DNA of 64,000 nt from an uncultured bacterium (GTDB lineage: Bacteria; Oederibacteriota; JAAXVQ01; JAUVAV01). Below, one piece after another: positions 9,698 to 43,318 of this stretch. The notes beneath the pieces are model-generated. The model had not been told where the DNA came from. It searched no databases and was given only the letters and a program-made list of their open reading frames with translations. The stretch is taken from contig CAZVUO010000001.1 in assembly GCA_964630235.1 (NCBI GenBank), positions 917,446-981,445 of the forward strand, read 5' to 3'. Position numbers and translations under genes: made by a program. The stretch's first letter is position 1; every line of letters starts with the position of its first letter.

Positions 9698-11092
9698 ATG
9701 CTGCGAACAGGCTGGGTTCTCGCGCTGGTCTTGGCTTATCCTGCGGTAGGGATGGCGGCCTTGACCTACCAGGACCATCCCCGCGCTGACAGCGACCTGG
9801 TCGAACGCGCGGTGTTTTCCGGCGCGCAGGAGGTCGCCAGGCTCGCGCTGGACGGGAACGGGAACGTGATCCGCTCCACGGGAACGGTACCGGATGGCGT
9901 AGCCGAATACTACGATAAAGACCAACGCCTGCGCGGCCGCCTCACGTTCCAGGGCGGGGTGCTGTCAGGACCTGCCGCGACCTACTATCCGGATGGAACC
10001 CTATACCTGGAAGCGAATTACACCGGGAACCGGCTGCACGGCGCCTACCGGCTATACGACGCGCAGGGCAGGTTGAAGACCGATTACCGCTTCCAGGACG
10101 GACGGCTGGACGGGGAACAGAAAGTCTACTACGACAGCGGCCAGCTCATGAGCCGGTCCCGCTACAGTTACGGCGTCAAGGACGGTCCGCTCCTCATGTA
10201 CCACGAGAACGGACGCGTCGCGTATAAAAGCGACTATCACCAGGGACACCAGCTGCGACGTGCGGAGTTCGACGAGGACGGCCGTGAGATCGGGACCCGG
10301 CCCGGTCCCTCCGCCGGCCCTCCGGACGCGGAAGAACCGGCTGTCGAAACCGGCGCCGGCGCGGCCGTGGAACCCGAGGCGCAGCTGACTGAGACCAGGG
10401 CAGAAACCCCCGATGGGGGAGGCGGGCACCGAGCCTCAGACCGCTGGCAGGGCAGGATCGTGATCTTCGGCAGCGTGCCTTCGGCGGCTTTTTCCATGGC
10501 CCGAGTCAATGCCTACTTGAACGACTGGGATGAATTCCTGAACTATTACGGCGTGCGTTCCAGCCTGGGTCTGGCGGCGCAGTCTACCTTTACCGGCGGG
10601 GCGGGGTACTGGGTCAGCGATGCGGTCTTCGCGGGGTTTGAAGGGGAAGTACTGAGCTGTGAAACCTCATCTGGCGGCGATCAGCTGGGGGTGGATTTCC
10701 GCGCGCGGGCTCTGGAACTGGGGGCGTTTGTCCAGGTCGGCACCCATGTGCCGCCGCATGTGTTTATGGCCGGCTTGGGAGGCTACAGTGTCACTCTGAT
10801 CGATGCCTGGGAGTACCTGCATCTCAACGCGGTCGGTTATAGCGACGCCTTCCGGGTTTTTCACGGTTCGACCCTGGGTTTAAAATTCATGGCTGGGTAT
10901 CAGGTCGAGTTGGCGCCATTTTTTGGACTGGGAGTGGATCTGGGCTACCGCCTGGCCGCGATCAACGACGTGACCTTTACGGCGGATAATTACCAGGAGG
11001 AGCCGTTTATCTACGCCGGCGATCCCATCAACCTCGATTTCAGCGGCTTCTACGTCCGCGCGGGTCTCCGCCTGTATTTTCAGACCCGGTGA
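9698..11092 (+). CDS. Secreted protein: N-terminal MORN/YwqK-type repeats fused to a C-terminal outer-membrane beta-barrel-like domain
   Basis: Signal peptide. Repeats of YYxxGxLxxExxYxxGxxxG, a Pro/Glu/Ala-rich linker, then about 220 aa with an alternating hydrophobic pattern ending LRLYFQTR. AGGAGGG RBS. Confidence 0.6.
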   Translation: MLRTGWVLALVLAYPAVGMAALTYQDHPRADSDLVERAVFSGAQEVARLALDGNGNVIRSTGTVPDGVAEYYDKDQRLRGRLTFQGGVLSGPAATYYPDGTLYLEANYTGNRLHGAYRLYDAQGRLKTDYRFQDGRLDGEQKVYYDSGQLMSRSRYSYGVKDGPLLMYHENGRVAYKSDYHQGHQLRRAEFDEDGREIGTRPGPSAGPPDAEEPAVETGAGAAVEPEAQLTETRAETPDGGGGHRASDRWQGRIVIFGSVPSAAFSMARVNAYLNDWDEFLNYYGVRSSLGLAAQSTFTGGAGYWVSDAVFAGFEGEVLSCETSSGGDQLGVDFRARALELGAFVQVGTHVPPHVFMAGLGGYSVTLIDAWEYLHLNAVGYSDAFRVFHGSTLGLKFMAGYQVELAPFFGLGVDLGYRLAAINDVTFTADNYQEEPFIYAGDPINLDFSGFYVRAGLRLYFQTR

Positions 11093-11329: not shown

Positions 11330-11456
11330 TGGTGCGTGCTACCGCGGTCATTCACGACTCTCTCTCCCCAGCCAGTGACAGACCTCCTCCCCTGCGCCGA
11401 ATGCCGCGTGCCGGATATATGTCAGCGCCGCCTCAACCACTCGGCTGGAGTCGCGG

Positions 11457-14400
11457 ATGAGCCCGGAAATCATTGTCGAACCCGCTGGCCTGACACCCCG
11501 GTTGCAGACCCTGATCGAGAACCTTGACCTTTCCCCCGAACATAAAAAGACCCTCCTGGACGCCCAAATCCGTTCCATCCGCATCAGCGCCCAGCCGGCC
11601 TTGCTCATCGTCCGCCTGGACGCCGCGCAGCTCCTGCCCGCCGACGGCCTGGAACAGCTGCGCGCCCGTCTCGGCGAGATGCTGGAAACCAGCGGCGGGA
11701 CGCAGATGGTGTGGGATGTGTACTATCCCGAGGGCGCCGTGACGCCCGCCCAATACTTGGAGGCCCACTGGCACGACCTGCTTGGCATCCTGTCCCGGCA
11801 CGTGCAAATGGCCCGCGCGTATCTGTCCCTGATCCAGGTGTCCAACGGCGAGCCCAATCGCCTGCGCCTGGCTCTGCCCAATGCCATGACCCTTTCCGCC
11901 CTGCAGCGCCAGTCCGGCGACAAAATCTTGAGCCAGCTCCTTACCGAACGCCTGAGCCGGGCCGTGAGCGTGCGCTTCGAGATCGGCCACTTCGAGGAAG
12001 AGCTCAAGCGCCGCGAGGCCCTGTACCAGAAGCGCCTGCGCGAGGAACTGGAGCGCATTCAGAACGAGAGCGCTGACGCACCCGCGGCCGGAACCGCCGC
12101 CTGCGAGGGCGGTCCGGCCTCGGCCCCCGCCCCCCTGCGCGTGCTCTTGGGACGCAAAATCGCCAGCCCGCCCCGCCCCATCGCGAGCCTCACGGAAGAA
12201 GAGGACCAGGTGGTGCTGGAGGGCGAGCTCATCACTTTCGAATGCAAGACCTTGCGCACCGGCCGCCAGCTCGCCCTCATGGACGTGTACGACAAGACCG
12301 GCACCTTGAACGCGCGCCTGTTCGTGGACGCCGGCAAAACGCTCTCCCCGGAGATCAAGGTCGGCGCCTACGTGCGGATGCGGGGCACCCTGCAGTTCGA
12401 TAAATTTTCCCGCGACCTGTGCCTGCTGGTGCGGGACGTCTCCCTCGGCGCCAAACCCGAGCGGCGGGACTGCGCCGCGGAAAAGCGGATCGAGCTCCAC
12501 GCCCACTCCCATATGAGCGCCATGGACGCCCTGGTCGGCGTGACCCAGCTGGTGGCCCGGGCCGCGGCCTTTGGCCATCCGGCCGTGGCCTTGACCGACC
12601 ACGGCGTGGTGCAGGGCTTTCCCGAAGCCATGGCCGCGGGAGAGAAACACAAGATCAAGGTCATCTACGGCATGGAAGGCTACCTGGTGGAGGACGAATG
12701 GCTCGGCATCAAACCGCCGCAGAAACCGCCCCGGCCTTACCATATCTGCCTGCTGGTGGCCGAACCCCGCGGCATTCGCAACCTCTACCATCTGGTGTCG
12801 GAAGCTCACCTCGGTCACTTTTATTACCATCCGCGCATTCCCCGGTCCTTGCTGGAGAAATACCGCGAAGGACTGCTGCTGGGCTCGGCCTGCGAGCAGG
12901 GCGAGCTCTTCCGCCGCCTGCGCGAGGGCGCCGCGGGGGAAGAACTCGAAACCATCGCCCGGCGCTACGACTATTTGGAGATCATGCCGCGCGAGAACAA
13001 CCGGTTCCTCATCCGTGAGGGCCTCGTGGCCGGCGAGGACAAGCTCCTGGCCATGAACCAGCGGATCTATGAACTGGGGAAGCGGCTGGGGCTGCCCGTG
13101 GCGGCCACGGGCGATGTGCATTTTCTCGAACCCGGGGACGAAGTGTTCCGCTCGATCCTCCACGCGGGCATGGGTTATGCGGACGCGGACCTGCAGGCGC
13201 CGCTGTATTTCAAGACCACCGAAGAGATGCTCGGGGAGTTCGCCTATCTGGGCCCTGACGGCGCGTACGACGCGGTCGTGGCCGCTCCGCGCAAAATCGC
13301 GGAGCGGATCGGCGACATCCAGCCCGTGAAGAAAAAGTTCCATCCCCCCAAACTGCCCCGGGCCGAGGAGGAGCTCAAATCCACGGCCCTGGCCAGGGCC
13401 CGCGAGGTGTACGGCGGTTCCCTGCCCGAAGAGGTGGAGAAGCGCCTCCGGCGGGAGATCACGGCCATCACCAAGAACCACTTTGCCTCGCTCTTCATGA
13501 TCGCGCGGCGCCTGGTGCAGAAATCCCTGGCGGACGGCTACCTGGTCGGCTCGCGCGGCTCCGTGGGCTCCTCTCTCACGGCCACCATGCTGGGTATCAC
13601 GGAGGTCAACCCCTTGCCCGGGCATTATCTGTGCACCGCCTGCCGGCACCATGCGTTTCCGGGAGACGGCCGCATCGGGCCCGACCTGCCGGACAAGTCC
13701 TGCCCGGCTTGCGGCCAGGTCATGGAAAAGGAGGGGTTTGACATCCCCTTCGAGGTCTTTATGGGTTTCGAGGGTGATAAACTGCCGGATATTGACCTGA
13801 ATTTTTCGGGAGAGTATCAGGCCAAGGCGCACAAGGCCCTGGAGGAAATATTCGACCGCGCGCATATTTTCCGCGCGGGCACCATTTCCACGGTGGCCGA
13901 CCGCATTGCCTACGGATTTGTCAAAAAATACCTCGAGGACAACAAACTGGTGGTGCGGGAGGCCGAGGTCAACCGGCTCACCCGCGGCTGCGCCGGCGTC
14001 AAGAAAACCACGGGCCAGCACCCGGGCGGCATCATGATCGTGCCGCAGGACATGGAAATTTATGATTTCACGCCCGTGCAGCGGCCGGCCGACGACCGCA
14101 GTTCGGAGATCGTGACCACCCACCTGGACTACCACGCCATTCACGACGCGCTGCTCAAGCTGGACCTGCTCGGCCATGACGATCCCACGTCCCTCAAGCG
14201 CCTGGGCGATCTGACCGGCGTGGACGTGCGCTCCATCCCGCTCGACGATCCGGAGACTCTGGCCATTTTTTCGGGCGTCTCCAGCCTGGGGCTCGCGGCC
14301 GAGGCCATCGGCACGCCCATCGGCACCTTGGGCATTCCGGAGTTCGGCACCGAATTTGTGCGCCAGATGCTGGAAGCCACCCGGCCCAAGCTGTTTTCCG

Positions 14401-15209
14401 AGCTGGTCCGGATCTCCGGACTCTCGCACGGAACGGATGTGTGGCTGAACAACGCCGCGGACCTGATTCGCGAGAAGACCGCCACGCTGTCCACGGTCAT
14501 CTCGGCGCGCGACGACATCATGAATTACCTGATTACCCGCGGCATGGATCCGGCCCAGGCATTCAAGATCATGGAATCCGTGCGCAAGGGCAAAGGCCTG
14601 TCGCCTGAACAGGAGCAGAGCATGCGCGATGCGGCGGTGCCGTCCTGGTACATTGACTCCTGCAAGAAGATCAAGTACATCTTTCCCAAAGCCCACGCCG
14701 TGGCCTACTGCCTGATGGCCTTCCGCATCGCGTATTTCAAGGTACACCATCCCACGGCTTTCTACGCCAACTACTTCACCCTGAACGCGGAGTTCTTCGA
14801 CGCCCAGCTGGTGGCGCGCAGCGGCGCGCAGAAAGTGGCCGAGCGGATCCAGGAACTGCGCGGCCTGCAGGACGCCACGGCCAAGGACAAGCACACCCTG
14901 ACCGTGCTGGAAGTGGCGCGTGAGGCGTTCGCCCGCGGCCTGCGCTTCAAACCCGTGTCGCTGATGGAGTCGGACCCGGCGAAGTTCCTGATTGTGGCCG
15001 AAGGCGTACTGCTCCCGCCCCTGGTTTCACTCTCGGGCCTGGGCGCGACCTGCGCCCAGCGCATCGTGGAGGAACGGTCCAAAACCTCATTCCGCTCCAT
15101 CGAGGATCTCTCGCGCCGCACGGGCGCCAACAAGAACGTGGTCGAGATCCTCATCCAGCACGGCTGCCTCGGCATCCTCCCCAAGACCGACCAGACCACC
15201 CTGTTTTAA
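11457..15209 (+). CDS. polC: PolC-type DNA polymerase III alpha subunit, apparently lacking the 3'-5' exonuclease insertion
   Basis: N-terminal domain, then an OB fold, then a PHP domain (IELHAHSHMS). PolC-specific GSRGSVGSSLTATMLGITEVNPLP and the CxxC...CxxC zinc module. C-terminal tandem HhH. 1250 aa, with no FDxETTG exonuclease motif between the PHP halves. Confidence 0.85.
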   Translation: MSPEIIVEPAGLTPRLQTLIENLDLSPEHKKTLLDAQIRSIRISAQPALLIVRLDAAQLLPADGLEQLRARLGEMLETSGGTQMVWDVYYPEGAVTPAQYLEAHWHDLLGILSRHVQMARAYLSLIQVSNGEPNRLRLALPNAMTLSALQRQSGDKILSQLLTERLSRAVSVRFEIGHFEEELKRREALYQKRLREELERIQNESADAPAAGTAACEGGPASAPAPLRVLLGRKIASPPRPIASLTEEEDQVVLEGELITFECKTLRTGRQLALMDVYDKTGTLNARLFVDAGKTLSPEIKVGAYVRMRGTLQFDKFSRDLCLLVRDVSLGAKPERRDCAAEKRIELHAHSHMSAMDALVGVTQLVARAAAFGHPAVALTDHGVVQGFPEAMAAGEKHKIKVIYGMEGYLVEDEWLGIKPPQKPPRPYHICLLVAEPRGIRNLYHLVSEAHLGHFYYHPRIPRSLLEKYREGLLLGSACEQGELFRRLREGAAGEELETIARRYDYLEIMPRENNRFLIREGLVAGEDKLLAMNQRIYELGKRLGLPVAATGDVHFLEPGDEVFRSILHAGMGYADADLQAPLYFKTTEEMLGEFAYLGPDGAYDAVVAAPRKIAERIGDIQPVKKKFHPPKLPRAEEELKSTALARAREVYGGSLPEEVEKRLRREITAITKNHFASLFMIARRLVQKSLADGYLVGSRGSVGSSLTATMLGITEVNPLPGHYLCTACRHHAFPGDGRIGPDLPDKSCPACGQVMEKEGFDIPFEVFMGFEGDKLPDIDLNFSGEYQAKAHKALEEIFDRAHIFRAGTISTVADRIAYGFVKKYLEDNKLVVREAEVNRLTRGCAGVKKTTGQHPGGIMIVPQDMEIYDFTPVQRPADDRSSEIVTTHLDYHAIHDALLKLDLLGHDDPTSLKRLGDLTGVDVRSIPLDDPETLAIFSGVSSLGLAAEAIGTPIGTLGIPEFGTEFVRQMLEATRPKLFSELVRISGLSHGTDVWLNNAADLIREKTATLSTVISARDDIMNYLITRGMDPAQAFKIMESVRKGKGLSPEQEQSMRDAAVPSWYIDSCKKIKYIFPKAHAVAYCLMAFRIAYFKVHHPTAFYANYFTLNAEFFDAQLVARSGAQKVAERIQELRGLQDATAKDKHTLTVLEVAREAFARGLRFKPVSLMESDPAKFLIVAEGVLLPPLVSLSGLGATCAQRIVEERSKTSFRSIEDLSRRTGANKNVVEILIQHGCLGILPKTDQTTLF

Positions 15210-16953: not shown

Positions 16954-17655
16954 ATGGAATTATCCGTCAGGGAAGTCGCCAAACTCCTGAAAGTATCCGA
17001 AAAGACGGTCTACCGGTGGATTGCGGAAAAAAAATTGCCGGCCTTCCGCATCCACGACCAGTACCGGTTCAACCGGGTGGAATTGCTGGAGTGGGCCACG
17101 ACCCGCCGCTTGAACGTTTCCCCGGAAATCTTCGCCGAACCTTCCTCTGAAGCGCCCTTGCCCAGCCTGGCCGAGGCCCTGCAGGCCGGCGGCGTTTATT
17201 ACCGCATCGCCGGCCAAACCCGCGATGAAGTCCTGGCCGCCGTGGTCGAGCACATGCGCCTGCCTGATGCGGTGGACCGGAAGTTCCTGCTGCAAGTGCT
17301 GCAGGCGCGCGAGGAACTGGGCTCCACGGCCATCGGCGAGGGCATCGCCATTCCGCACGTCCGCAATCCCGTGGTCCTGCACGTGGGGCAGCCGACCATC
17401 ACCCTCAGTTTCCTGGAAACGCCGGTGCCGTTCGGCGCGCTGGACGGCCAGCCCGTGCGGGCCCTGTTCACGCTGATCAGTCCCACGGTCCGCGCCCACC
17501 TGCACATGCTGTCGCGCTTGGGGTTCGCGCTGCGCGACCCGGAGCTCAAGCGGCTGGTGCGGGAGCAAAGCCTGCGCGAGAAAATCTTCTCCGCCGTGTC
17601 GGCCGTGGAACAGGCGTTGACCGAGGCCGAATCCAGGGAGGGAAGCGGTTCATGA
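16954..17655 (+). CDS. Transcriptional regulator: N-terminal excisionase/MerR-like HTH fused to a PTS EIIA(Ntr)/fructose-type domain
   Basis: AKLLKVSEKTVYRWI helix-turn-helix. C-terminal GSTAIGEGIAIPH signature with the phosphorylatable His. Stop overlaps the start of the next gene (ATGA). Confidence 0.75.
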   Translation: MELSVREVAKLLKVSEKTVYRWIAEKKLPAFRIHDQYRFNRVELLEWATTRRLNVSPEIFAEPSSEAPLPSLAEALQAGGVYYRIAGQTRDEVLAAVVEHMRLPDAVDRKFLLQVLQAREELGSTAIGEGIAIPHVRNPVVLHVGQPTITLSFLETPVPFGALDGQPVRALFTLISPTVRAHLHMLSRLGFALRDPELKRLVREQSLREKIFSAVSAVEQALTEAESREGSGS

Positions 17656-19634
17656 TCGCCGCCGGATTCGCCTTATCCCTGGGATTGCTGCTCGCGGGCG
17701 GGCTTCTGGCCTGGATGTGTTCCGGCCGTCCGGCCCTGGCCGCCATCCTGGGCAGCGCCAGCGCTTGCGCGGCCGGCGGGATCGGCTTGGCCGCGTCGCT
17801 GGCGGCCCTGCATCCGGGGAACGCCTTCAGCCTCAACTGGCCGTGGGTCATGCCCAACGCATCCTTGTCCCTGGGCGTGGATCCCCTGGCGGCGTTTTTC
17901 CTGGCAGCGCTATTCGCGGTTTCCGGCTGTGCGGCGCTCTTTGGCTGGGGGTATTTGCGGCAGGACCACGAACCAGCCCGGCAGGGCGGCCACTGGTTTT
18001 TCTTCAACCTGCTGGTGGCGAGCATGGCCGTGGTCCTGCTGGCGCGCAACGCCCTGCTGTTCCTCGTGGCCTGGGAAGTCATGACCGTGTCTTCGTATTT
18101 CTTGGTGGTGCACGATCACGAGGAAGAACGCGTCCGCAGGGCGGGATGGATTTACCTGACCGCGTCCCATATCGGCGTGCTGTTCCTTTTGGGCTTTTTC
18201 GCGCTGGCCGGCCAGCAGGCCGGCGGTTTCGAATTTTCCCGCCTCCAGAGCGCGCTCCCGGATTCCGCCGGTTGGCTGTTTTTACTCGCCTTGGCCGGCT
18301 TCGGGTTGAAGGCGGGATTCGTGCCCCTGCACGTGTGGCTGCCCGAGGCGCATCCGGCCGCGCCGAGCCACGTATCGGCGCTCCTGTCGGGCGTGATGAT
18401 CAAGCTCGGCATCTACGGCCTGTTCCGGGTCCTGACTTTTTTTGCCGAGCCGGCCGCATGGTGGGGAGGGCTCATGGTCGGCATCGGCCTGCTTTCCGGC
18501 GTTTGCGGGGTGGCTTTCGCCCTGGCGCAGCACGACCTCAAACGCCTGCTGGCCTACCACAGCGTGGAGAACATCGGCATTATCGCGCTGGGCCTGGGCC
18601 TGGCCCTGATCGGGCGCAGGCTGAACCTACCCGCGCTGGCCGCGCTCGGGGCCTTGGGCGCGCTGCTGCACGTTTGGAACCATGCATTGTTCAAAGCCCT
18701 GCTCTTTCTCGGCGCGGGCGCCGTGGTGCGTCAGACCGGACTGCGCAGCGTGGATGCCGCGGGCGGCCTGTTGAAACGCATGCCCGCCACCGGCGCGGCG
18801 TTTTTTGTGGGCGCGGCTGCCATCTGCGGCTTGCCGCCGTTCAACGGCCTGGTGAGCGAATGGCTGATCTATACGGCCGGATTCACGGGCCTGACGCAGG
18901 CGCCGGCAGCCTGGGCGCCTGCGGCCATCGCCACGGTGGCCGGCTTGGCCGCGATTGGCGGCCTGGCGCTCGCCTGCTTCGCCAAGGTTTTCGGCGCGGT
19001 CTTTCTCGGCGAACCGCGCACACCGGAGGCCGCGGCCGCCACTGAAGCCCATTGGACCCTGCTCGCGCCCATGCTCGCGCTGGCCGCCATCTGCCTGGCC
19101 ATCGGTCTGGCCGGGCCTTGGCTGTGCCTGGCTCTGAGGCCGGCCGTCTTGTCCATCCTGGGCGTCGAGGCCGCCCTCGGCGCCGGGGCCGTGGCTGTGG
19201 CCGCCGGCTGGATGCTGCGCCTGACCGGGGTCATGCTGATCCTGCTGGCCGCGACCGCGCTGATCATCTGGCTGCGGAACCGCAGACTGCGGAAGCCCGT
19301 TGCTTCCGGGCCGACGTGGGATTGCGGCTTCGCGGACCCTTCGCCCCGCATGCAGTATACGGCCGCGTCCTTCAGCCAGCCCCTGACCCGCTCCCTGGGA
19401 CTCTTGCTCAGGCCGCAAACGCAAGCCCAGCTTCCAGCCGGGCTGTTTCCCGGCCCGGCCCATTGGCGCTCCCATGTGTCCGACTTGTTCCAGCGGCTTC
19501 TGCTGGAGCCGTTGTTCCGCGGCGCGGCGGCCGGGTTGTCGTGGCTGCGCTGGCTGCAGCACGGCCGGATCCAGCTCTACGTCCTCTACATCGCCGCGGC
19601 GCTGATTCTGCTCGCCCTCTGGGGGTGGCTGTGA
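17652..19634 (+). CDS. Antiporter-like membrane subunit (NuoL/MrpA/HyfB family) of an energy-converting hydrogenase-related (Ehr-like) complex
   Basis: 660 aa, many TM helices, WLPEAHPAAPSHVSALLSGVMIKLG motif typical of the NuoL/HyfB family. Confidence 0.8.
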   Translation: MIAAGFALSLGLLLAGGLLAWMCSGRPALAAILGSASACAAGGIGLAASLAALHPGNAFSLNWPWVMPNASLSLGVDPLAAFFLAALFAVSGCAALFGWGYLRQDHEPARQGGHWFFFNLLVASMAVVLLARNALLFLVAWEVMTVSSYFLVVHDHEEERVRRAGWIYLTASHIGVLFLLGFFALAGQQAGGFEFSRLQSALPDSAGWLFLLALAGFGLKAGFVPLHVWLPEAHPAAPSHVSALLSGVMIKLGIYGLFRVLTFFAEPAAWWGGLMVGIGLLSGVCGVAFALAQHDLKRLLAYHSVENIGIIALGLGLALIGRRLNLPALAALGALGALLHVWNHALFKALLFLGAGAVVRQTGLRSVDAAGGLLKRMPATGAAFFVGAAAICGLPPFNGLVSEWLIYTAGFTGLTQAPAAWAPAAIATVAGLAAIGGLALACFAKVFGAVFLGEPRTPEAAAATEAHWTLLAPMLALAAICLAIGLAGPWLCLALRPAVLSILGVEAALGAGAVAVAAGWMLRLTGVMLILLAATALIIWLRNRRLRKPVASGPTWDCGFADPSPRMQYTAASFSQPLTRSLGLLLRPQTQAQLPAGLFPGPAHWRSHVSDLFQRLLLEPLFRGAAAGLSWLRWLQHGRIQLYVLYIAAALILLALWGWL

Positions 19635-20533
19635 TGGACCTCGCGAGCCTTCTGCTTTGGCTGGCCGCGCTGCTGCTCTCGCCACTGTGGCTGGGCCTGA
19701 TCGAGCGCGTCAAAGCGTTCTTCGCCGGCCGCCGGGGGGCGCCCCTGCTGCAGGTTTATTATGACCTGGCAAAACTCTGGGGCAAGCAGGCGGTGTACAG
19801 CCGCACGGCCACCTGGGTTTTGCGTTCCGCGCCGGCCTGGAGCCTGGCCGCGATCCTGGCAGCCACCCTGTTCGTTCCGTGGGGCGGCTGGCCGGCCCTG
19901 GCGGTTTTTCCCGGAGACATGATCGTCTTGTTCTACCTGCTGGCCCTGGCCCGCTTTGGGCTGGTGCTGGGCGCCCTGGACACGGGGTCCGCGTTCGCGG
20001 GCATGGGCGCCAGCCGCGAAGTCTGGCTCTCCGCCCTGGCCGAGCCCGTGCTGTTCCTGGGGCTGGCGGTGCTGGCGCTCCAGCACAGGCAGTGGAGCCT
20101 GACCGCGTTGCTGGGAGGCCCGGCCGGCTGGCCGGACCTCGCGGTGTGGCTGGTGGCCCTGGCGTGGGCCGTGGTGCTGGTCGTGGAAAACGCGCGCCTG
20201 CCGGTGGATGATCCGAACACGCATCTGGAACTGACCATGATCCATGAGGCCATGATTTTGGACCATAGCGGGCCGGACCTGGCGCTGGTCACGGCCGGGA
20301 GCGCCGTGAAATTTTCCATCTTCTCCGCGCTCTTGGCCGGGTTGTTCGTGCCCCAGGGGCTGGAGCCGGGCTGGCTCAAGCTCGCGGCCGCAGGGGCCGG
20401 CATGGCGGTGGCCGCCGTGGCCGTGGGGGTGACCGAGTCGGTTTTGGCCCGCTGGCGTCTGGTCAGCCTGCCGCGCCTGCTCGCGGGCGCAGCCGCTCTG
20501 GCCGTGATCGCCCTGTTGTGGGTGATGCGATGA
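19634..20533 (+). CDS. NuoH/HycD/HyfC-like membrane subunit of the Ehr-like complex
   Basis: About 299 aa polytopic protein, with HycD-like length and pattern. TGATG overlap with the upstream gene. Confidence 0.7.
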   Translation: MDLASLLLWLAALLLSPLWLGLIERVKAFFAGRRGAPLLQVYYDLAKLWGKQAVYSRTATWVLRSAPAWSLAAILAATLFVPWGGWPALAVFPGDMIVLFYLLALARFGLVLGALDTGSAFAGMGASREVWLSALAEPVLFLGLAVLALQHRQWSLTALLGGPAGWPDLAVWLVALAWAVVLVVENARLPVDDPNTHLELTMIHEAMILDHSGPDLALVTAGSAVKFSIFSALLAGLFVPQGLEPGWLKLAAAGAGMAVAAVAVGVTESVLARWRLVSLPRLLAGAAALAVIALLWVMR

Positions 20534-21219
20534 ACCTGCAACCGGATTTCATGAACGTCCTGTCGGTTTTGCTGATCCTGTGCACCCTCGCGCTGTTCGG
20601 CGCCAGCCGCCTGTCCTATTGCATCCGGGTGGCCGCGGTCCAGGGGTTTGTGCTGGGCCTGCTGCCGGTTTTCACCAGCGCGGCCGGTATGCACCCCTCG
20701 GCCTGGGTCATGTCCGGATTGGCGATAGCCCTCAAGGCGTTCGTCTTTCCCTGGCTGCTGCTGCGGGCCTTGCGCCAGGCGAATATCCGGCATGAGATCG
20801 AACCCAGCGTGGGATTCAGCTGGTCGATCTGGATCGGCATCCTGCTGCTCGCGGTCTGCGTGCTGGCCGGCCGGGGCATGGCTTCCTGGCCAGGCGCGCC
20901 CGAGGGCCTGCAGTTGCCGGCCTCCTTCTTTATGGTGCTGGCCGGATTTTTTCTGATCGCGGCCCGGCGCCAGGCCCTGACCCAGGCGGTCGGCTACCTG
21001 GTCCTCGAGAACGGCGTGTTTGTCTTCGGCAGCCTGCTGGTGCCCGAAGCGCCGCGCCTGCTGGAGTTGGCGGTGCTCCTCGACCTGTTGGCCGCGGTCT
21101 TCATCATGGGCATCGCCATCTTTCACATTCACCGGGAATTCGACCACATTGACACCAACCGGCTGAACTTTTTGCGCGATTGGCACCGGAAAGAACCCCT
21201 GCGGGAGCCGCGGCCATGA
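20530..21219 (+). CDS. HyfE-like small membrane subunit of the Ehr-like complex
   Basis: 229 aa, about 6 TM helices. ATGA overlaps on both sides. Confidence 0.6.
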   Translation: MNLQPDFMNVLSVLLILCTLALFGASRLSYCIRVAAVQGFVLGLLPVFTSAAGMHPSAWVMSGLAIALKAFVFPWLLLRALRQANIRHEIEPSVGFSWSIWIGILLLAVCVLAGRGMASWPGAPEGLQLPASFFMVLAGFFLIAARRQALTQAVGYLVLENGVFVFGSLLVPEAPRLLELAVLLDLLAAVFIMGIAIFHIHREFDHIDTNRLNFLRDWHRKEPLREPRP

Positions 21220-22655
21220 TCCTCGTCCTCGCGCTTTTGCCTCCCCTGGCCGGCGCGGCGGCCCTGCTGCTGCGCGGCCCCCGCCTGATCCGGGGCTGGC
21301 TGGTGACGGCCGCGCTCGGGCACTTTCTGCTGACCGTGGCCGCGCTGGCCGGCGCGCCAGCGCCTGCCTGGCACGGCTGGCTGGAACTGGACGCGGCCGG
21401 CAAGATTTTTTTAGGCACCACCAGCCTGTTGTTCCTGGTGGTCAGCGTGTATACGCTCGATTTCCTCCGGAGAGAAAAGCGGACGGACGCCGAGGACCGG
21501 CCCTACCCGGAGTCGGTGTTCGTGGCCTGCCTCCTGTTTTTCCTCGGCGCCATTACCTGGGTGATCCTGAGCCAGCACCTGGTCCTGCTGTGGGCGGCGG
21601 TCGAAGCCACCACGCTCTCTTCCGCGCCGCTCATTTATTTCCATCGCAACGACCGTTCCCTGGAAGCCACCTGGAAATACCTGCTCCTGTGTTCGGTCGG
21701 AATCGCCCTGGCCCTGCTCGGCACGTATTTTCTGGCCATGGCCGCGGGCGGCAGCGGCGCGGGGCTCACGCTGCGGGAACTGGCCCAGCCCGGCCAGGCC
21801 CTGCGCACGCCCTGGCTGAAAGGCGCGTGGATTTTGCTGCTGGTGGGATACGGCACCAAGATGGGCCTGGCGCCCATGCATTCCTGGCTGCCGGACGCGC
21901 ACAGCGAAGCTCCCTCGCCGGTTTCGGCCCTGCTCTCCGGCGCGCTGCTCAACGGTGCGTTCCTCGGCATCGCGCGCGTGCTCTCCGTGTGCGCGGCCTC
22001 CGGGCAGGGCGACTTTGCCCGGCAGACGCTGATCGCCCTGGGCTTGTTTTCCATGCTGGTGGCCGCGGTGTTTATCCTGGGCCAGACGGACTTCAAACGC
22101 ATGCTGGCGTTCTCTTCGGTGGAGCACATGGGCGTCCTGGCGCTCGGCTTGGGCATCGGCGGGGCGGGCGTTTACGCCTCGCTGCTGCACGCGGTCAATC
22201 ACTCCCTGGCCAAGGCCATGCTGTTTCTGCTGGCCGGCAACCTGCTGGCCGCCTTCGCGACCAAAACCATCACCGCGGTGCGGGGAGCGGGCCGCCTGCT
22301 GCCTGTCACCGGGGCCCTGTGGCTGGCAGGCTTCTTCGCCATCTCCGGCATCCCACCCTTCGGATTGTTCTGGAGCGAATGGCTGATGCTCAGGGCGGCG
22401 CTGTGGAGCGGGGCGTGGCTGGCGGGCGTGCTCTATCTGCTGTTCTTGCTGGTGGTGGTGATCGGCATGGCCTCCATCGTGGTGCGCATGGTGCAAGGCG
22501 AACTGCCGCCCGAACGGAAGCCGCTGATCGAGCGCAGCCTGGCTGTCCTTCCGCCTGCCGTACTTGCGCTCTGCGCGCTGCTGCTCGGCCTGTACCTGCC
22601 CGCGTTCCTGCGTTCGGCGCTGGAACAGGCCGCGGCCTTGTTGGGAGGCGGTTAG
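21216..22655 (+). CDS. NuoN/NuoM/HyfF-like antiporter subunit of the Ehr-like complex
   Basis: 479 aa. GTKMGLAPMHSWLPDAHSEAPSPVSALLSGALL motif. Confidence 0.75.
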   Translation: MILVLALLPPLAGAAALLLRGPRLIRGWLVTAALGHFLLTVAALAGAPAPAWHGWLELDAAGKIFLGTTSLLFLVVSVYTLDFLRREKRTDAEDRPYPESVFVACLLFFLGAITWVILSQHLVLLWAAVEATTLSSAPLIYFHRNDRSLEATWKYLLLCSVGIALALLGTYFLAMAAGGSGAGLTLRELAQPGQALRTPWLKGAWILLLVGYGTKMGLAPMHSWLPDAHSEAPSPVSALLSGALLNGAFLGIARVLSVCAASGQGDFARQTLIALGLFSMLVAAVFILGQTDFKRMLAFSSVEHMGVLALGLGIGGAGVYASLLHAVNHSLAKAMLFLLAGNLLAAFATKTITAVRGAGRLLPVTGALWLAGFFAISGIPPFGLFWSEWLMLRAALWSGAWLAGVLYLLFLLVVVIGMASIVVRMVQGELPPERKPLIERSLAVLPPAVLALCALLLGLYLPAFLRSALEQAAALLGGG

Positions 22656-24116
22656 ATGACTCCCGGGGTCCGCACCCGCAATCAGGAGGCCGTGAGCCTG
22701 AACGAGATTCCCAACCTGGACGCCGGGGCGTTTCGCGCCGCGGTGCTGGCAGCCGTGTCCAGGGGGAGCCGCTTGTCCGCCTGGTTCGCGGGGCCTGCCA
22801 TTGGGGCCGCGCGCAGGCTGTACGCGATCTTGGCCGATGACCACAGCGGCACGCTAACCTGGCTGAGCACCGGGATGGAAGATGAATGGCCAAGCCTCAC
22901 GCCGGACTGTCCCCAGGCGCACGCGTTTGAGCGGGAACTGGCGGAAGACGCGGGGCTGCATCCACAGGGGCATCCCTGGCGCAAGCCCCTCAGGCGCCTC
23001 CGCGACCACGGGGAATTCTTCCGCGTCCTCGGCGAGGAAATTCACGAGGTCGCCGTGGGGCCGGTGCACGCGGGCGTGATCGAACCCGGCCATTTCCGCT
23101 TCCAGTGCGCTGGCGAAAAAGTATTGCACCTGGAAATCGCCCTTGGATACCAGCACCGCGGCGTGGAGCAGGCGCTGCCCCAGGCCGCGCCCAGGTCGGC
23201 CATGGCCATCATCGAAACCGCGGCCGGCGATACCAGCATCGGGCATGCCCTGGCCCATGTCGGCGCGCTCGAAGCACTGTCCGCGGCCCACGTGCCGCCG
23301 CGCGGCCTGGCCGTGCGCGCCCTGGCCCTGGAACTGGAGCGCCTGGCCAACCATGCGGGCGACCTGGGCGCCCTGGCCCAGGACGTGGGCTATCTGCCCA
23401 CCGCGTCCCACTGCGGCCGCCTGCGCGGAGACCTGCTGAACCTCACGGCCGAGCTCTGCGGCAGCCGCTTCGGCCGCGGCCTGGTCCAACCCGGCGGCGC
23501 GGCTTTTGACCTGGAGCCGGAACGGGCGGCCCGCCTGGAAAACAAGCTGGTTGCCATTCTCGCGGAACTGCATTTGGCCCTGGACCTGACGTGGAACTCG
23601 CCCTCCGTGCTGGCGCGCTGGGAGCAAACCGGCCGGCTCCCGCGCAAAACCGCGCTGGACCTGGGCGTGGTGGGACCGGCGGCCCGGGCCTGCGGATTGG
23701 CTCGCGACGTCAGGCAGGATTTCGCCTCGGGCATGTACGCGCTGGCGCATATCCCCATCGCCCTGGCGCACGGCGGGGACGTTTTTTCCCGGGCCCTGGT
23801 ACGCTGGATCGAAATTCAGCGCTCGGCTGCGTTCGTGCTGGAACAGCTGGGGTCCCTGCCCGCGGGCCCGGTCCGGGACGGAATGCCGGACCTCAAGCCC
23901 CGGCTGGCCGCGGCCGCGCTGGTCGAAGGCTGGCGAGGCGAGATCTGCCACGTGGCCATGACCGGCGACGACGGCCGGCTGGCCGCGTATAAGATCGTGG
24001 ACCCGTCGTTCCACAATTGGCAGGCGTTGGCCCAGGTCATGCGCAACGGGGAGATCAGCGATTTTCCGCTGTGCAATAAAAGCTTCAACCTGTCCTACTG
24101 TGGACATGATCTATAG
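22656..24116 (+). CDS. NuoC-NuoD/HycE-like large subunit lacking all NiFe-ligating cysteines (Ehr large subunit)
   Basis: NuoC-like N-terminal part (AFERELAEDAGLHPQGHPWRKPLRR). The core GPVHAGVIEPGHFRF...LGYQHRGVEQ is hydrogenase-like. Position L1 reads ETAAGDTSIGH where a hydrogenase has ERICGICSxxH. Position L2 reads IVDPSFHNW where a hydrogenase has DPCxxCxxR. The C-terminal tail is NuoD-like (SYCGHDL). Confidence 0.8.
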   Translation: MTPGVRTRNQEAVSLNEIPNLDAGAFRAAVLAAVSRGSRLSAWFAGPAIGAARRLYAILADDHSGTLTWLSTGMEDEWPSLTPDCPQAHAFERELAEDAGLHPQGHPWRKPLRRLRDHGEFFRVLGEEIHEVAVGPVHAGVIEPGHFRFQCAGEKVLHLEIALGYQHRGVEQALPQAAPRSAMAIIETAAGDTSIGHALAHVGALEALSAAHVPPRGLAVRALALELERLANHAGDLGALAQDVGYLPTASHCGRLRGDLLNLTAELCGSRFGRGLVQPGGAAFDLEPERAARLENKLVAILAELHLALDLTWNSPSVLARWEQTGRLPRKTALDLGVVGPAARACGLARDVRQDFASGMYALAHIPIALAHGGDVFSRALVRWIEIQRSAAFVLEQLGSLPAGPVRDGMPDLKPRLAAAALVEGWRGEICHVAMTGDDGRLAAYKIVDPSFHNWQALAQVMRNGEISDFPLCNKSFNLSYCGHDL

Positions 24117-24231
24117 GCCTGCGTTTCCAGCTTCCTGATCCTTGCCGTAAACCCGGCAGACAGGGTCCGGAAGCTTCCCCCTGCGGCCCAAGAGGGGCAA
24201 GGGGAGTGGGGCACCAAACAGGAGTCACCGT

Positions 24232-24981
24232 ATGCTGAAAGCCTTGCTGGCCCGGCTGAAGACCGGATGCCGAACCCAACCTTTTCCACCCGGGTCCGCG
24301 GCGGTTTCCGACCGCTTCCGAGGCAGGCCCGAGCTATGCGCGGGCACCGGACCCGCGGACCCCGGCGCCTGCCCGACTGCCGCGTTCAGCCGGCAGGACG
24401 GGGGCTTGAACCTGGACCTGGGCCGCTGTTTGTTCTGCGGGTCCTGCCCATTTAGCCAGCCTGCGGGTCCGCTGGCGTTCAGCCGGGATTACCGGCTGGC
24501 TGCTTCCACGCGCGGAGACTTGAACCTGCGGCTCGGCGCCGAGTTCCATCCCGCCCGGCCGCTGGGCGAGAACCTGCGCCGTTTGCTGGGCCGCGCCTTG
24601 CGCCTGCGCCAGGTCAGCGCCGGCGGCTGCAACGCCTGCGAAGCCGACGCCAATGTGCTGACCACGGTCGGGTTCGACTTGGGGCGTTTCGGCATCCAAT
24701 TCGTGGCTTCGCCCAGGCACGCGGACGGGCTGCTGGTCACCGGGCCGGTCACGCTCAACATGCGGCTGGCCCTGGAAAAGACCTATGCCGCGGTGCCGGA
24801 GCCCAAGCTGGTCATCGCCTCCGGCGCGTGCGCCATTTCCGGCGGGCCGTATGCGGGGCAGAAGCAGGTCCTGAACGGCGTGGACCGGCTCCTGCCCGTG
24901 GACCTGTACGTGCCCGGCTGTCCGCCGCATCCCTTGACCCTGTTGGACGGCCTGTTGCGCCTGCTGGGCAGGATCCGCTGA
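24232..24981 (+). CDS. NuoB/HycG-like small subunit with an N-terminal ferredoxin-like (HycF-remnant) extension
   Basis: GGCNACE...ASGACAISGG...VPGCPP cluster-N2-type motifs. The N-terminal 60 aa carry CP(TAAF) and CLFCGSCP, enough for one additional [4Fe-4S] cluster. AGGAG RBS. Confidence 0.8.
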   Translation: MLKALLARLKTGCRTQPFPPGSAAVSDRFRGRPELCAGTGPADPGACPTAAFSRQDGGLNLDLGRCLFCGSCPFSQPAGPLAFSRDYRLAASTRGDLNLRLGAEFHPARPLGENLRRLLGRALRLRQVSAGGCNACEADANVLTTVGFDLGRFGIQFVASPRHADGLLVTGPVTLNMRLALEKTYAAVPEPKLVIASGACAISGGPYAGQKQVLNGVDRLLPVDLYVPGCPPHPLTLLDGLLRLLGRIR

Positions 24982-36456: not shown

Positions 36457-38178
36457 TTATTTCCGCTTGAACAGCTTGCGCAGTTCGGTAACGGACCGTG
36501 TGTTGAGCACGTCCGCCGGCTCCAGCCACCCGCGCCGCGCCTGATTGATCCCGTAGCGCAGGGTGCGCAGGCCGACCGGGCTGTGCGCGTCCGAGGAAAC
36601 AGCCACCCGCACGCCTGCTTCCTTGGCCTGGCGGCAGGCCGTGTCCGTGGCGTCCAGACGCTCGGGATGGGAGTTGAGCTCGAGAAAACAGCCGCGTTCC
36701 TTCGCGCCGGCGATCACGCGTTCCAGCTCCAGCGGGTAGGGGGGGCGGGAGTTCAGCAGGCGGCCGGTGGGGTGGCCGAGAATGCTGAAATAGGGATTGT
36801 CCATGGCGCGCAGAATGCGCTCGGTTTGCTTGCCCGCGGGCAGGTTAAATTTGTAGTGGATGGACCCCACGGCGTAATCCAGGCGCGCCAGCACCTCATC
36901 CGGCATATCCAGCCGGCCGTCCTCCAAAATGTCGGCTTCCAGTCCTTTTAGCAGCGTGAAATTCTTAAGCCGCGCGTTGGCCGCGTCAATGGCGTCGAGC
37001 TGTTTGAGCAGGCGTTTGGCGTCCAGGCCGTGGGCCACGGTCACATGCTGGGAATGGTCGGTAATGCCCAGGTACGCATAACCGAGGGCGCGGGCGGCCT
37101 CGGCCATTTCCAGCAGGCCGGCTGTGCCGTCCGATTCCTCGGTATGGCAGTGGAGGTCTCCGCGCAGGTCCGGCAGGCTTACCAGGCGCGGCAGGAGCCC
37201 CTGGGCCGCCCGCTCCAGTTCGTCCCCCGCTTCCCGCAGTTCGGGCTCGATGTAAGCCAGGCCGAGGCGGCGGTAGATTTCCTCCTCGGTTTTGCCTGCC
37301 ACGGACCGTGTTCCCTTGAACAGCCCATACTCATTGAGTTTGTAGCGCTTTTTTTGCGCCAGCTTGCGCACCGCGATGTTATGCGCCTGAGAGCCGGTGA
37401 AATAGTGCAGGGCCGCGCCGAAACTCTCCTGCGGCACGGCGCGCACGTCCACCTGCAGGTCCGAGCGCAAAACGACCGTGGCGCGGGTCGGACCCAAGGC
37501 CTGCACGCGCGCGATGTCCGGGTAGCGGCTGAAAAATTCCAGGGTCTTGTCAGGCAGGCGGCTGGCGACCAGGATATCCACATCGCCGATGGTTTCCTTG
37601 CGGCGGCGGAAGCTGCCGGCCGCGGCCGTGGACTCCACGCCCGGGGCGGCCCGCAAATAGACCAGGAGCGCTTCCACGGCCGGCTCGGCGCTGGCCCACA
37701 GCGTGCGCTCGGGATTGGCCATGCGGTGCGCGGCGCCGGACAGGATCTGCTCCTCCAGCTTGGGGCCGAAGCCGGGGAGCGCCCGCACCTTGCCGGCTTG
37801 GGCCGCGCGTTTAAGGTCGTCCAGCGTTCGCGGACGCAGGCTCGCGGCCAGCTGTCTGACCCGCTTGGGTCCCAGCCCCGGCAGTTTCAGCATCGCGAGC
37901 TGCACAGGCGGGATCTTGGCCTCCAGCTCCGAAAGCATTGTCAGCGCACCGGTGGCCAGGAGTTCCTGGATCTTTTCGGCCAGGTCCGGGCCGATGCCCG
38001 GCAGACCGGTCAGGCCGTTCTTGCGGGCGGCGAGTTCGGACAGGCTGCGGGGCAGGTTGGCAATGGTTTGGGCCGCAGTATGATACGCGCGGATGCGGAA
38101 GGGATTGGCGCCTTCCAGCTCCAGCAATACGGCCACCCGCTCGAAGCGTTCCGCGATTTCCTGGTTTGTGAGGGGCAT
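36457..38178 (-). CDS. polX: DNA polymerase X family protein with a C-terminal PHP (3'-5' exonuclease/phosphoesterase) domain
   Basis: HhH motifs (GLPGIGPDLAEKI) and a Pol beta-like nucleotidyltransferase (GSFRRRKETIGDVDIL). PHP with HCHTEESDG. Confidence 0.88.
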   Translation of the reverse strand: MPLTNQEIAERFERVAVLLELEGANPFRIRAYHTAAQTIANLPRSLSELAARKNGLTGLPGIGPDLAEKIQELLATGALTMLSELEAKIPPVQLAMLKLPGLGPKRVRQLAASLRPRTLDDLKRAAQAGKVRALPGFGPKLEEQILSGAAHRMANPERTLWASAEPAVEALLVYLRAAPGVESTAAAGSFRRRKETIGDVDILVASRLPDKTLEFFSRYPDIARVQALGPTRATVVLRSDLQVDVRAVPQESFGAALHYFTGSQAHNIAVRKLAQKKRYKLNEYGLFKGTRSVAGKTEEEIYRRLGLAYIEPELREAGDELERAAQGLLPRLVSLPDLRGDLHCHTEESDGTAGLLEMAEAARALGYAYLGITDHSQHVTVAHGLDAKRLLKQLDAIDAANARLKNFTLLKGLEADILEDGRLDMPDEVLARLDYAVGSIHYKFNLPAGKQTERILRAMDNPYFSILGHPTGRLLNSRPPYPLELERVIAGAKERGCFLELNSHPERLDATDTACRQAKEAGVRVAVSSDAHSPVGLRTLRYGINQARRGWLEPADVLNTRSVTELRKLFKRK

Positions 38179-40121: not shown

Positions 40122-40535
40122 ATGATTCCTTTTGAGATCCTAGAGCATACGGCGGACGTGGGGCTTAGGGTCCAGGGCCGGACGCTGGAGGAACTGTTCG
40201 AGAACGCGGCCCAGGGCCTGTACGCGCTGGCCTTGGCGGCGCCTCCGGCCGGGGCGGTGACCGAGAAGGTCACTCTGCACCTGGCCGCTGACGGCCCGGA
40301 ATCCCTGCTGGTCGCGTTCCTGGAGGAACTGGTATTCCGCCTCTACAGCCGGTGCCAGATGGCGATCAGCGCGCGCCTGTCCTTTCCCACGCCCAATCGC
40401 TTGAGTGCCGAGGCGGCGTTCGTTCCCGTCGCGGCCGAATCCTATGCGGTGGAAGTGAAAAGCCCCACGTACCACCGGCTGAAGATCGAGCAGGGGCCTG
40501 AAGCCTGGCTCGCGGAGGTCTATTTTGACCTGTGA
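40122..40535 (+). CDS. Archease (RtcB activator)
   Basis: MIPFEILEHTADVGLRV N-terminus. Confidence 0.85.
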   Translation: MIPFEILEHTADVGLRVQGRTLEELFENAAQGLYALALAAPPAGAVTEKVTLHLAADGPESLLVAFLEELVFRLYSRCQMAISARLSFPTPNRLSAEAAFVPVAAESYAVEVKSPTYHRLKIEQGPEAWLAEVYFDL

Positions 40536-40556
40536 GGGCGGGGAGAACTGAACGTC

Positions 40557-40991
40557 GTGGCCATACGCAAGCTCAAGCGGAAAAAGGGAAGTCTTTATCC
40601 CCACCGATATTTTCTGGGCACGGGGTTCGGGACCGAGGACCTGGACAATAAACCCGTGGAGGATAAATACCGAGCCCAGGTGCCGAGATCAGAGGCCCTG
40701 ATCAAGATCGGGACCGTGGAAAAACTTCCACACGGCACCCTGAAGTGCTTTCTGCGACGGGGGATCGCGGTCGTCGGCTTATACCAGGCCGGGAAACCCG
40801 TGGGGTACGAGCTGTTGTATAAACCGACACCCGAGGAACGCCAGCGCGGCATCCCGGAGTGGAAGTTCGACCTCCAGAACACCTCGGTCTTGGGCACGGA
40901 TTGGGATTACCAGGACATCACCACATTCTTTTGGACCGTGCGCGGTTTGCGCAAGAACGGCAAGGCAGAAAAGACCATCAATCAAAGCTAG
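40557..40991 (+). CDS. Hypothetical protein
   Basis: 144-aa ORF at the edge of the low-GC island with no recognisable motif. Putative GTG start. Confidence 0.4.
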   Translation: MAIRKLKRKKGSLYPHRYFLGTGFGTEDLDNKPVEDKYRAQVPRSEALIKIGTVEKLPHGTLKCFLRRGIAVVGLYQAGKPVGYELLYKPTPEERQRGIPEWKFDLQNTSVLGTDWDYQDITTFFWTVRGLRKNGKAEKTINQS

Positions 40992-41116
40992 CGGACCGGA
41001 CAGGGCCGAGGTTCTGCGCGGCATGGCGAAGGGTCCGTGGCAGGTGTGGTGATTGACCAGCGGGATTTCGGTTTCGTGTAGACAAACGCTTTTAATGCTG
41101 TTGCGGAGGAAAAATC

Positions 41117-41908
41117 GTGAAAATATTGAAATATCTCATAAAGCATATTTTACGCATGGCAGGAGTCGGAACGTATAGCATAAAAAATGTTCATCGCCAT
41201 TATATGTTTGAAGTCCTCGAGCATCTCAAAAAGATGTCTTTTTACCCCAGCACGGTTATTGATGTGGGCGTAGCGTACGGGACAAATGATCTCTATGAGA
41301 AATTTCCGCGAGCCCATCATTTATTAGTTGAACCACTCGAAGAGTACAAAAGCGTTTTGGATAAAATAGCCAAGAAATATAACGCGGAATATGAATTGGC
41401 GGCCGCGGGGGCCAAGGAAGGAGTTCTCGAGATCAACGTTCATCCGGATCTGTCCGGATCATCATTATTAAAAGAGGTCGAAGACAGTGACGTCAATGGC
41501 GTTCCCCGCAAAGTCAAAATAATAACGCTTGATCATTTGTGCCTTCGAAAAAAAACGACCGGCCCTTATTTAATCAAGATTGATGCGCAAGGAGCTGAGC
41601 TTGAGGTGCTGGAAGGCGCGCAAAACATATTAAAAGAAACCGAAGCGATTGTTTTGGAGGTGTCTTTTTTTCAGTTTTACCAGAATGGCCCGCTGATGTA
41701 TGACGTGGTCAAGTGGATGAAGGATCATGGGTTTGCTGCCTACGATTTGTATGGAGGTCAAAACCGTCCCCTCGACGGCGCCTTGGCTCAAATTGACATG
41801 GTTTTTGTTAAAGAACATGGAATTTTCAGGAAAAATCATTATTACGCCACCCGCGAACAACGAAAGAAGCATACGAAGTTGGTGAGTACAGAAAATCCGA
41901 AAAACTAA
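41117..41908 (+). CDS. FkbM family SAM-dependent methyltransferase
   Basis: VIDVGVAYGTND SAM motif and IDAQGAELEVLEGA. About 41% GC against 65% in the surrounding sequence. GTG start with a GGAGGA RBS. Confidence 0.75.
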   Translation: MKILKYLIKHILRMAGVGTYSIKNVHRHYMFEVLEHLKKMSFYPSTVIDVGVAYGTNDLYEKFPRAHHLLVEPLEEYKSVLDKIAKKYNAEYELAAAGAKEGVLEINVHPDLSGSSLLKEVEDSDVNGVPRKVKIITLDHLCLRKKTTGPYLIKIDAQGAELEVLEGAQNILKETEAIVLEVSFFQFYQNGPLMYDVVKWMKDHGFAAYDLYGGQNRPLDGALAQIDMVFVKEHGIFRKNHYYATREQRKKHTKLVSTENPKN

Positions 41909-42064
41909 TATAGGTCTTGAATTAATCGGTGCGATTTATTTTAGCGGAACAGAAAAGTGGTTTCGATTTGCTGCGCGGGTTTCATCCCCGGTTGTACAGT
42001 GATGGTATTCACTTGACAGTGTCCGCGAATGGCCTATCATTGTAAGGAGTAGGTTTTTACTTCT

Positions 42065-42181
42065 CGTCACCCCGGCCCAGTCCTGTCTGATCTGGGCCAG
42101 GGCGAAAGCCGGGGTCCAGTATCAGGCATTAATCAAATCAAATTCCCTGGATTCCGGCTAACTACATGCCGGAAAGACGAG
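42065..42181 (+). repeat. R-family structured repeat, copy E
   Basis: CGTCACCCCGGC...GCCGGGGTCCAG...CCTGGATTCCGGC...GCCGGAAAGACG. Confidence 0.7.
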
Positions 42182-42276
42182 CGGACGGGATTTCCGTGGC
42201 AGGATTATTTACCTGCGATATCAGGTGAATACTATCACTACACATGCCGGTAGCAGCGGTATTTCCGAGGGGTCGC

Positions 42277-43232: not shown

Positions 43233-43318
43233 GCGCAAAGCGTCGGGTGACTTGCGGCGCGTGAACCAGGAGCAGGAAGGAATTATCGGCAGAACGGAGA
43301 TTTGTTGCGTCCTGCAGC

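Follow-up and report, generated by a model that had tools for sequence, protein, structure and literature searches.

Canonical polymerases of the PolC type, such as those of Bacillus subtilis and Geobacillus kaustophilus (3F2B) and the full-length PolC 9QPC, carry a DnaQ-like DEDDh exonuclease (Exo) of about 193 amino acids inserted in their PHP domain. In polymerases of the DnaE type, proofreading in cis by the PHP domain itself has been demonstrated for Mycobacterium tuberculosis DnaE1 and for the Thermus polymerase III alpha subunit. According to Timinskas et al. (NAR 2014, PMC3919608) 6% of PolCs have no Exo; these exo-less proteins were confined to Clostridia and Negativicutes, apart from an additional copy in Thermotogae, and occurred always in genomes encoding PolC together with DnaE1. 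PolC as such is reported in published surveys from Firmicutes, Fusobacteria, Tenericutes, and Thermotogae only (PMC4070872). The present analysis concerns a polC gene without this domain, located at positions 11457 to 15209 of a 64-kb stretch of DNA from an uncultured bacterium (contig CAZVUO010000001.1; the whole stretch is called the window in the following). The exo-less architecture as such was described for some Firmicutes in 2013, and the novelty lies in its being fixed in a lineage whose label places it outside Bacillota.

With the exo-less PolCs of Clostridia and Negativicutes, for example those of Sporomusa sphaeroides and Thermosinus carboxydivorans, the product of this gene shares the order N-terminal domain (NTD), OB fold, PHP, polymerase core (Pol3), and helix-hairpin-helix (HhH) without Exo, a length of about 1220–1250 amino acids, the intact PHP motif, and the C-terminal QxxLF, at an identity of 47–56% over 81–100% of the query. 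It differs from them in its host, which is labelled FCPU426/Firestonebacteria, has a G+C content of about 65% in the window, and carries a beta-barrel gene beside polC. It is also set apart by belonging to a separate clade with a junction sequence of its own (EDxW...RPYH), in which the distance from GMEGY to the end of the junction window is 27–31 residues as compared to 22 in Negativicutes. Canonical PolCs have the motifs, the Cys4 module, the clamp motif, and the proS-polC-nusA-infB neighbourhood in common with it (for Geobacillus PolC 51% identity and a TM-score of 0.92–0.94 to the query or its model) and differ in possessing the exonuclease, and the query PolC is a natural counterpart of the Exo-deleted PolC construct used for crystallisation. 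M. tuberculosis DnaE1 and the Thermus alpha subunit share the nine PHP metal ligands and the lack of a fused DnaQ domain, but are DnaE-type proteins with the OB fold and C-terminal domain (CTD) at the C-terminus and about 20% identity to the query.

A Complete PolC-Type Polymerase

The open reading frame (ORF) of 1250 codons runs for 3750 nucleotides without interruption from the first possible start after a stop codon. The following features were mapped on it.

11447..11450, + strand: GGAG Shine-Dalgarno sequence, 6 nt 5' of the polC ATG, read from the sequence
11457..15209, + strand: polC, PolC-type DNA polymerase III alpha subunit of 1250 amino acids without Exo domain (NF001688)
11457..12164, + strand: PolC NTD with NI and NII subdomains, residues 1–236 (Pfam, below threshold)
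12210..12407, + strand: OB fold, residues 252–317, N-terminal to PHP as in PolC (PF01336, 28.6 bits, cutoff 27)
12492..12695, + strand: first half of PHP, residues 346–413, with ligands H348, H350, D357, H382, and E407 (PF02811, alignment to DnaE1)
12696..12737, + strand: replacement loop, residues 414–427, DEWLGIKPPQKPPR, at the site of the canonical Exo of about 193 amino acids (alignments)
12738..13256, + strand: second half of PHP, residues 428–600, with ligands H429, C479, D553, and H555 (Pfam, alignments)
13371..14612, + strand: polymerase core with palm, thumb, and fingers, residues 639–1052 (PF07733, PF17657)
13632..13712, + strand: Cys4 zinc module, C726, C729, C749, and C752 (motif, alignment A1)
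14937..15182, + strand: C-terminal tandem helix-hairpin-helix, HHH_6, residues 1161–1242 (PF14579, 46 bits, cutoff 25.6)
15192..15206, + strand: QTTLF, a QxxLF beta-clamp-binding motif, residues 1246–1250 (homolog conservation)

Both NCBIfam equivalog models for PolC were passed with a clear margin, NF001688 with 1402 bits at a cutoff of 873 and TIGR01405 with 1265 bits at a cutoff of 1043. The DnaE models in contrast scored no more than 227 bits with cutoffs of 939–1806 bits, and matched mainly the PHP-palm region with residues 344–723 as the best stretch. These scores ruled out a DnaE carrying an unusual OB fold at its N-terminus. The Pfam order places OB fold and NTD before PHP, and no DnaE-type OB fold or CTD follows the C-terminal HhH. 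The matches to the NTD are below threshold (PF11490 for NII at residues 104–209 with E=6.8e-4, PF14480 for NI at residues 15–77 with E=0.13); PF11490 is contained in the precomputed annotation of two members of the clade described below (P0003 and P0004). In the predicted model described below the OB region forms the strands of a beta-barrel at model residues 13–94.

In the polymerase core DNA_pol3_alpha was matched at residues 639–827 and the finger domain at 911–1052. This region contains GSRGSVGSS at 698–706, PDIDLNF with D778 and D780 at 777–783, which is invariant in the alignment A1, and GHDD at 906–909. The catalytic role of the acidic residues of the core is presumed from what is familiar for the family. 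Of the cysteines of the zinc module, three do not vary in A1 (C490, C513, and C516 by the numbering of the model), and the remaining one, C493, is conserved in at least 90%. A Q-x-x-L-F sequence at or near the C-terminus, in accordance with the clamp-binding consensus QxxLF (PMC12926913), was found in 29 of the 30 homologs whose C-termini were inspected, the exception being P0027. Core motifs, Cys4 zinc module, HhH DNA-binding module, and C-terminal clamp-binding motif are all intact.

Absence of the Exonuclease Domain

The Pfam scan which detected the OB fold, PHP (PF02811, residues 346–504), and DNA_pol3_alpha yielded no match to RNase_T/DEDD (PF00929) anywhere in the polC product, including residues of about 400–600, and a DxETTG motif does not occur anywhere in the protein. 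The PolC profile was matched in two stretches, with residue 425 of the query corresponding to profile position 612. In a pairwise alignment with the PolC of a Bacillus locus (L069), a stretch of 193 residues of the Bacillus protein that contains DVETTG and the H-x4-D motif has no match and falls between residues 413 and 423 of the query. In the alignment to full-length PolC 9qpc the query up to residue 413 corresponds to residues 359–431 of the chain and the following residues to 626–809, leaving 432–625 without a partner. The alignment of the query to 3F2B is continuous; this crystal form of Geobacillus PolC is without NTD and Exo according to the legend to Fig. 1 in PMC3919608.

A structural model of residues 237–1250 was calculated by AlphaFold2 from the 44-sequence alignment A1. 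It reached a mean predicted local distance difference test (pLDDT) of 89.3 and a predicted TM-score (pTM) of 0.77, with mean pLDDT values of 82–91 for the blocks covering the loop, and superimposed on 3F2C/3F2B with TM-scores of 0.92/0.94 at a root mean square deviation of 2.6 Å. The exonuclease is cleanly absent, the PHP fold being closed by a loop of some 14 residues.

A hidden Markov model (HMM) was built from the Exo domains of 54 PolC homologs. Run with filters off against the ORFs of the window in all six frames, it gave no match (best E=1.1), which means that Exo does not reside in a separate gene nearby. Among about 55 ORFs of the window scanned with Pfam and NCBIfam no DnaQ-like or RNase_T gene was detected, and a split-off or remnant Exo gene in the vicinity was ruled out on these two grounds.

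The preliminary description of this stretch, made from the letters and their reading frames, agrees with these results where it assigned the gene to PolC and not to DnaE, gave the order NTD-OB-PHP-Pol3-HhH (the NTD being the part with matches below threshold) and the length of 1250 amino acids, pointed out GSRGSVGSS and the Cys4 module, and stated that a DEDD exonuclease insertion was missing.

The Exo-less State Is Shared by a Deep Clade

A protein 100% identical to the query is recorded in the database on 22 contigs (P0001), and "candidate division FCPU426 bacterium MAG080" encodes an ortholog with 87% identity (P0002, locus L001) on a contig of 1.13 Mb. Together with 17 further sequences they form a clade (P0001–P0019, 64–100% identical to the query) in which 19 of 19 members are without Exo and have a junction of the form EDxW...(K/R)PYH. 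This clade was monophyletic in 100 of 100 neighbor-joining (NJ) bootstraps, with P0052 as sister. Two of the 19 are labelled FCPU426, one Firestonebacteria, and two just "bacterium"; FCPU426 has the rank of a candidate phylum in the NCBI taxonomy. In comparison with L001 the ratio of nonsynonymous to synonymous substitution rates (dN/dS) amounts to 0.10 both over the whole gene and within the PHP region, and to 0.14 in the NTD.

As the source is an uncultured bacterium and assemblies of metagenome-assembled genomes (MAGs) can collapse regions, a mis-assembly, a frameshift, or a pseudogene might be held responsible for the missing domain. The unbroken reading frame of 3750 nt and the confidently predicted fold with its closed PHP domain speak against this, as do the occurrence of the identical protein on 22 contigs, the same junction in 18 further members of the clade from independent assemblies, and a dN/dS of about 0.1. 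An artefact or decaying gene is thus so improbable that it was rejected. The ORF encodes a complete PolC-type polymerase III alpha subunit under purifying selection, and, judged from the sequences at hand, the exo-less state is fixed across a whole deep lineage.

Exo-less PolCs are frequent among the relatives of the query and not confined to this clade. In a sample consisting of the 118 full-length sequences among the 120 best database matches, and hence biased towards similarity, 64 of the 118 have no Exo, including those of the cultured genera Sporomusa, Propionispora, Thermosinus, Heliorestis, Thermanaeromonas, and Thermosyntropha. Fitch parsimony on the NJ bootstrap trees, which are unrooted and were calculated with no outgroup from these 118 sequences, counted 7–13 changes of the Exo state (median 10), and the length and sequence of the junction vary between exo-less clades. 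Presence and absence of Exo appear to have changed repeatedly in the evolution of PolC, and repeated independent loss is the simplest reading. The query protein belongs to the PolC group and lacks Exo, like the subgroup of Timinskas et al., and its host lies by the MAG labels outside the Clostridia and Negativicutes. A search of the available literature for a link of PolC to FCPU426 or Firestonebacteria found no relevant paper.

A separate exo-less clade (P0035, P0038, P0039, and P0042) with the junction GTECYLV...SYH includes proteins from MAGs labelled Deltaproteobacteria and Ignavibacteriales. These are either mis-binned MAG proteins or further lineages outside Firmicutes with an exo-less PolC.

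Proofreading by an Exo-less PolC

All nine PHP ligands, H348, H350, D357, H382, E407, H429, C479, D553, and H555, are intact in the query and align one-to-one to H14, H16, D23, H48, E73, H107, C158, D226, and H228 of M. tuberculosis DnaE1. For D23, D226, and H228 the positions were counted off on the numbering of 7pu7. In DnaE1 these nine residues make up the trinuclear metal site. The resulting signature of the query, HHDHEHCDH, agrees with HHDHEH[C/H]DH, which has been put forward as the motif of an "active" PHP proofreader (PMC12926913).

The ligands and the lack of a fused DnaQ domain, both common to the query and to DnaE1 and the Thermus alpha subunit, are the basis of the mechanism proposed here. 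The exo-less PolC would act as a replicative polymerase tethered to the clamp, 3'-5' proofreading would be performed in cis by its own PHP domain, and the protein would be teamed with a polymerase of the DnaE1 type from another part of the genome, in analogy to the exo-less PolCs of Clostridia and Negativicutes. Since all nine metal ligands are conserved, the PHP domain is the leading candidate for the proofreading activity. We consider it reasonably likely that the protein is a clamp-tethered replicative PolC with PHP proofreading in cis as the most likely mode, probably alongside DnaE1.

Several points weigh against this reading. To our knowledge PHP-based proofreading or exonuclease activity has been demonstrated for no PolC. 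The intact PHP motif is found in 54 of 54 Exo-containing homologs of the sample as well and therefore does not discriminate; it would thus represent a pre-existing back-up rather than a specific compensation for the loss of Exo. This count is in accordance with the literature, where three "active" proofreaders are described as usual for Clostridia. The trees are NJ trees with no outgroup on 118 sequences selected by similarity. The sequence covered comprises the 64-kb window and 10 kb to either side of the homologs, and genes for a trans-acting DnaQ, for DnaE1, or for another PolC that does contain Exo may lie elsewhere.

Proofreading could instead be provided in trans by a separate DnaQ/epsilon-like exonuclease which docks on the PHP domain of PolC, in the way epsilon binds to DnaE in E. 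coli. Alpha-epsilon complexes of the E. coli type exist, errors of DnaE3 in B. subtilis are corrected in trans by the Exo domain of PolC, and bacterial proteomes contain on average more than three standalone DnaQ homologs (PMC12926913), so that a candidate is probably present somewhere in the genome. In the surveyed bacteria DnaQ in trans typically goes along with an inactivated PHP domain (PMC12926913), however, and that of the query is intact. A DnaQ-like ORF is present neither in the window nor next to polC in three related loci (L001, L081, and L082), where no nuclease gene is found as a conserved neighbour. The window does encode one further polymerase with a PHP domain:

36457–38178, - strand: PolX, full-length bacterial type with C-terminal PHP domain (NF006375, 498 bits, cutoff 426)

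NF006375 is the equivalog "DNA polymerase/3'-5' exonuclease PolX", a repair family (cf. PMC2566882). This gene is situated 21 kb from polC on the opposite strand with about 20 genes in between, adjoining RtcB-archease, and for want of linkage and as a repair enzyme PolX was ruled out as proofreader of PolC. Taken together, proofreading in trans seems unlikely. A slightly lower probability still is given to a division of labour, the possibility of which was raised by Timinskas et al. for organisms with PolC and DnaE1, where all their exo-less PolCs occur (PMC3919608). DnaE1, with its own active PHP domain or with DnaQ, would then be the main high-fidelity replicase; PolC would be an auxiliary or strand-specific enzyme that hardly needs proofreading, if at all, its errors being taken care of by mismatch repair. 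The strong purifying selection on the whole protein including PHP, the retained clamp motif, and the retention of the ancestral polC locus across a deep clade argue against such a minor role.

Returning to proofreading by PHP in cis, the intact metal ligands bear on the preliminary description too, which had concluded from the absence of Exo that a trans-acting proofreader is implied, either DnaQ or the "nearby" PolX. The first conclusion does not follow with nine ligands in place, and the second failed on the distance, the missing linkage, and the repair function of PolX. An unusual character of the architecture in itself was not upheld either, given the 6% of PolCs in PMC3919608 and the 64 of 118 homologs mentioned above. 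Its observation as such was confirmed, and so were the parts of its interpretation that concern the PolC type, the missing DEDD domain, and a host outside Firmicutes, the last at the level of labels, as the closest relatives stem from MAGs labelled FCPU426 (87% identity) and Firestonebacteria.

Genomic Surroundings

Upstream of polC the window contains in this order rseP, ispG, and, after further genes, a truD-like gene, proS, two GT4 glycosyltransferases, and a MORN/outer-membrane beta-barrel protein. polC is followed by a GNAT gene and murB on the minus strand, an EIIA-HTH regulator, and a Mrp/complex-I-like membrane cluster, and further 3' by nusA, infB, DUF503, rbfA, a DHH protein, truB, and ribF. 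Two related loci (L081 and L082) read GT4...polC-murB(-)-nusA; L081 continues with infB-DUF503-rbfA-DHH-truB-ribF and L082 ends within nusA. The locus of the 87%-identical ortholog reads proS-GT4-GT4-polC...murB-EIIA-Mrp, and Firmicutes loci have proS-polC-nusA-infB with Exo present or absent. As the proS...polC-murB-nusA-infB-rbfA locus is conserved and is the one with polC in Firmicutes as well, the gene occupies the orthologous polC position and is not a stray second copy from a mobile element.

The segment between murB and nusA measures about 8 kb (16954–24981, + strand) and contains the EIIA-HTH regulator and a Mrp antiporter/complex-I-like module with Proton_antipo_M twice, NADHdh, Oxidored_q2, and the 49-kDa and 20-kDa subunits; in L081 and L082 murB is directly followed by nusA with no Mrp-type module in between. 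Directly 5' of polC lies the gene for the MORN-repeat protein with an outer-membrane beta-barrel domain (9698–11092, + strand), which is missing at this place in L001. A beta-barrel protein beside polC suggests a diderm envelope.

The 64-kb stretch is rich in genes of replication and repair, with PolC, PcrA, PolX, and DNA polymerase I (Pol I). No dnaE was found in the window. Pol I (49369–51951, + strand; NF004397, 957 bits) was matched by Pfam in its 5'-3' exonuclease and family-A polymerase domains, and its 3'-5' exonuclease domain gave no match. This domain may be degenerate, in which case the 64-kb stretch would contain no recognisable DEDD proofreader of any kind. About 40 of some 50 likely genes of the window are on the plus strand, a strongly strand-biased gene distribution of the kind which has been associated with PolC-containing genomes (PMC4070872).

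Downstream of RtcB-archease, positions 40500–43800 form an island of low G+C (0.52–0.56 as compared to about 0.65), in which a methyltransferase of the FkbM type, a gene with a hemerythrin domain, and several ORFs without a match to any family are located and which may stem from horizontal transfer. Two GAF-GGDEF diguanylate cyclase ORFs are located on the plus strand at 52881–54302 and 54188–55750, their longest frames overlapping by 115 nt. Scans of the window for tRNAs and Rfam families gave nothing.

Significance

As the architecture dates back in the literature to 2013 and such proteins already receive the annotation PolC from NCBI pipelines, the finding is incremental. A more far-reaching version of it would be that a whole lineage at the level of a candidate phylum outside Bacillota, FCPU426 plus Firestonebacteria, replicates its genome with an exo-less PolC at the ancestral locus, with PHP as the sole proofreader and no DnaQ-type partner. 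We regard this as possible, if rather doubtful. If it were true, it would be a natural "PHP-proofreading PolC" and would extend the four phyla with PolC by one more lineage of phylum level, with a bearing on whether PolC and the polC-nusA-infB arrangement predate the Firmicutes.

With this clade a deep, uncultured, and, to go by the beta-barrel gene, apparently diderm lineage joins the short list of phyla with PolC. It shows that an entire lineage can be fixed for the exo-less form, which is not merely a sporadic oddity of clostridia. Exo-less PolCs with an intact PHP domain are natural test cases for the question, open in polymerase surveys, of whether the PHP domain of PolC proofreads.

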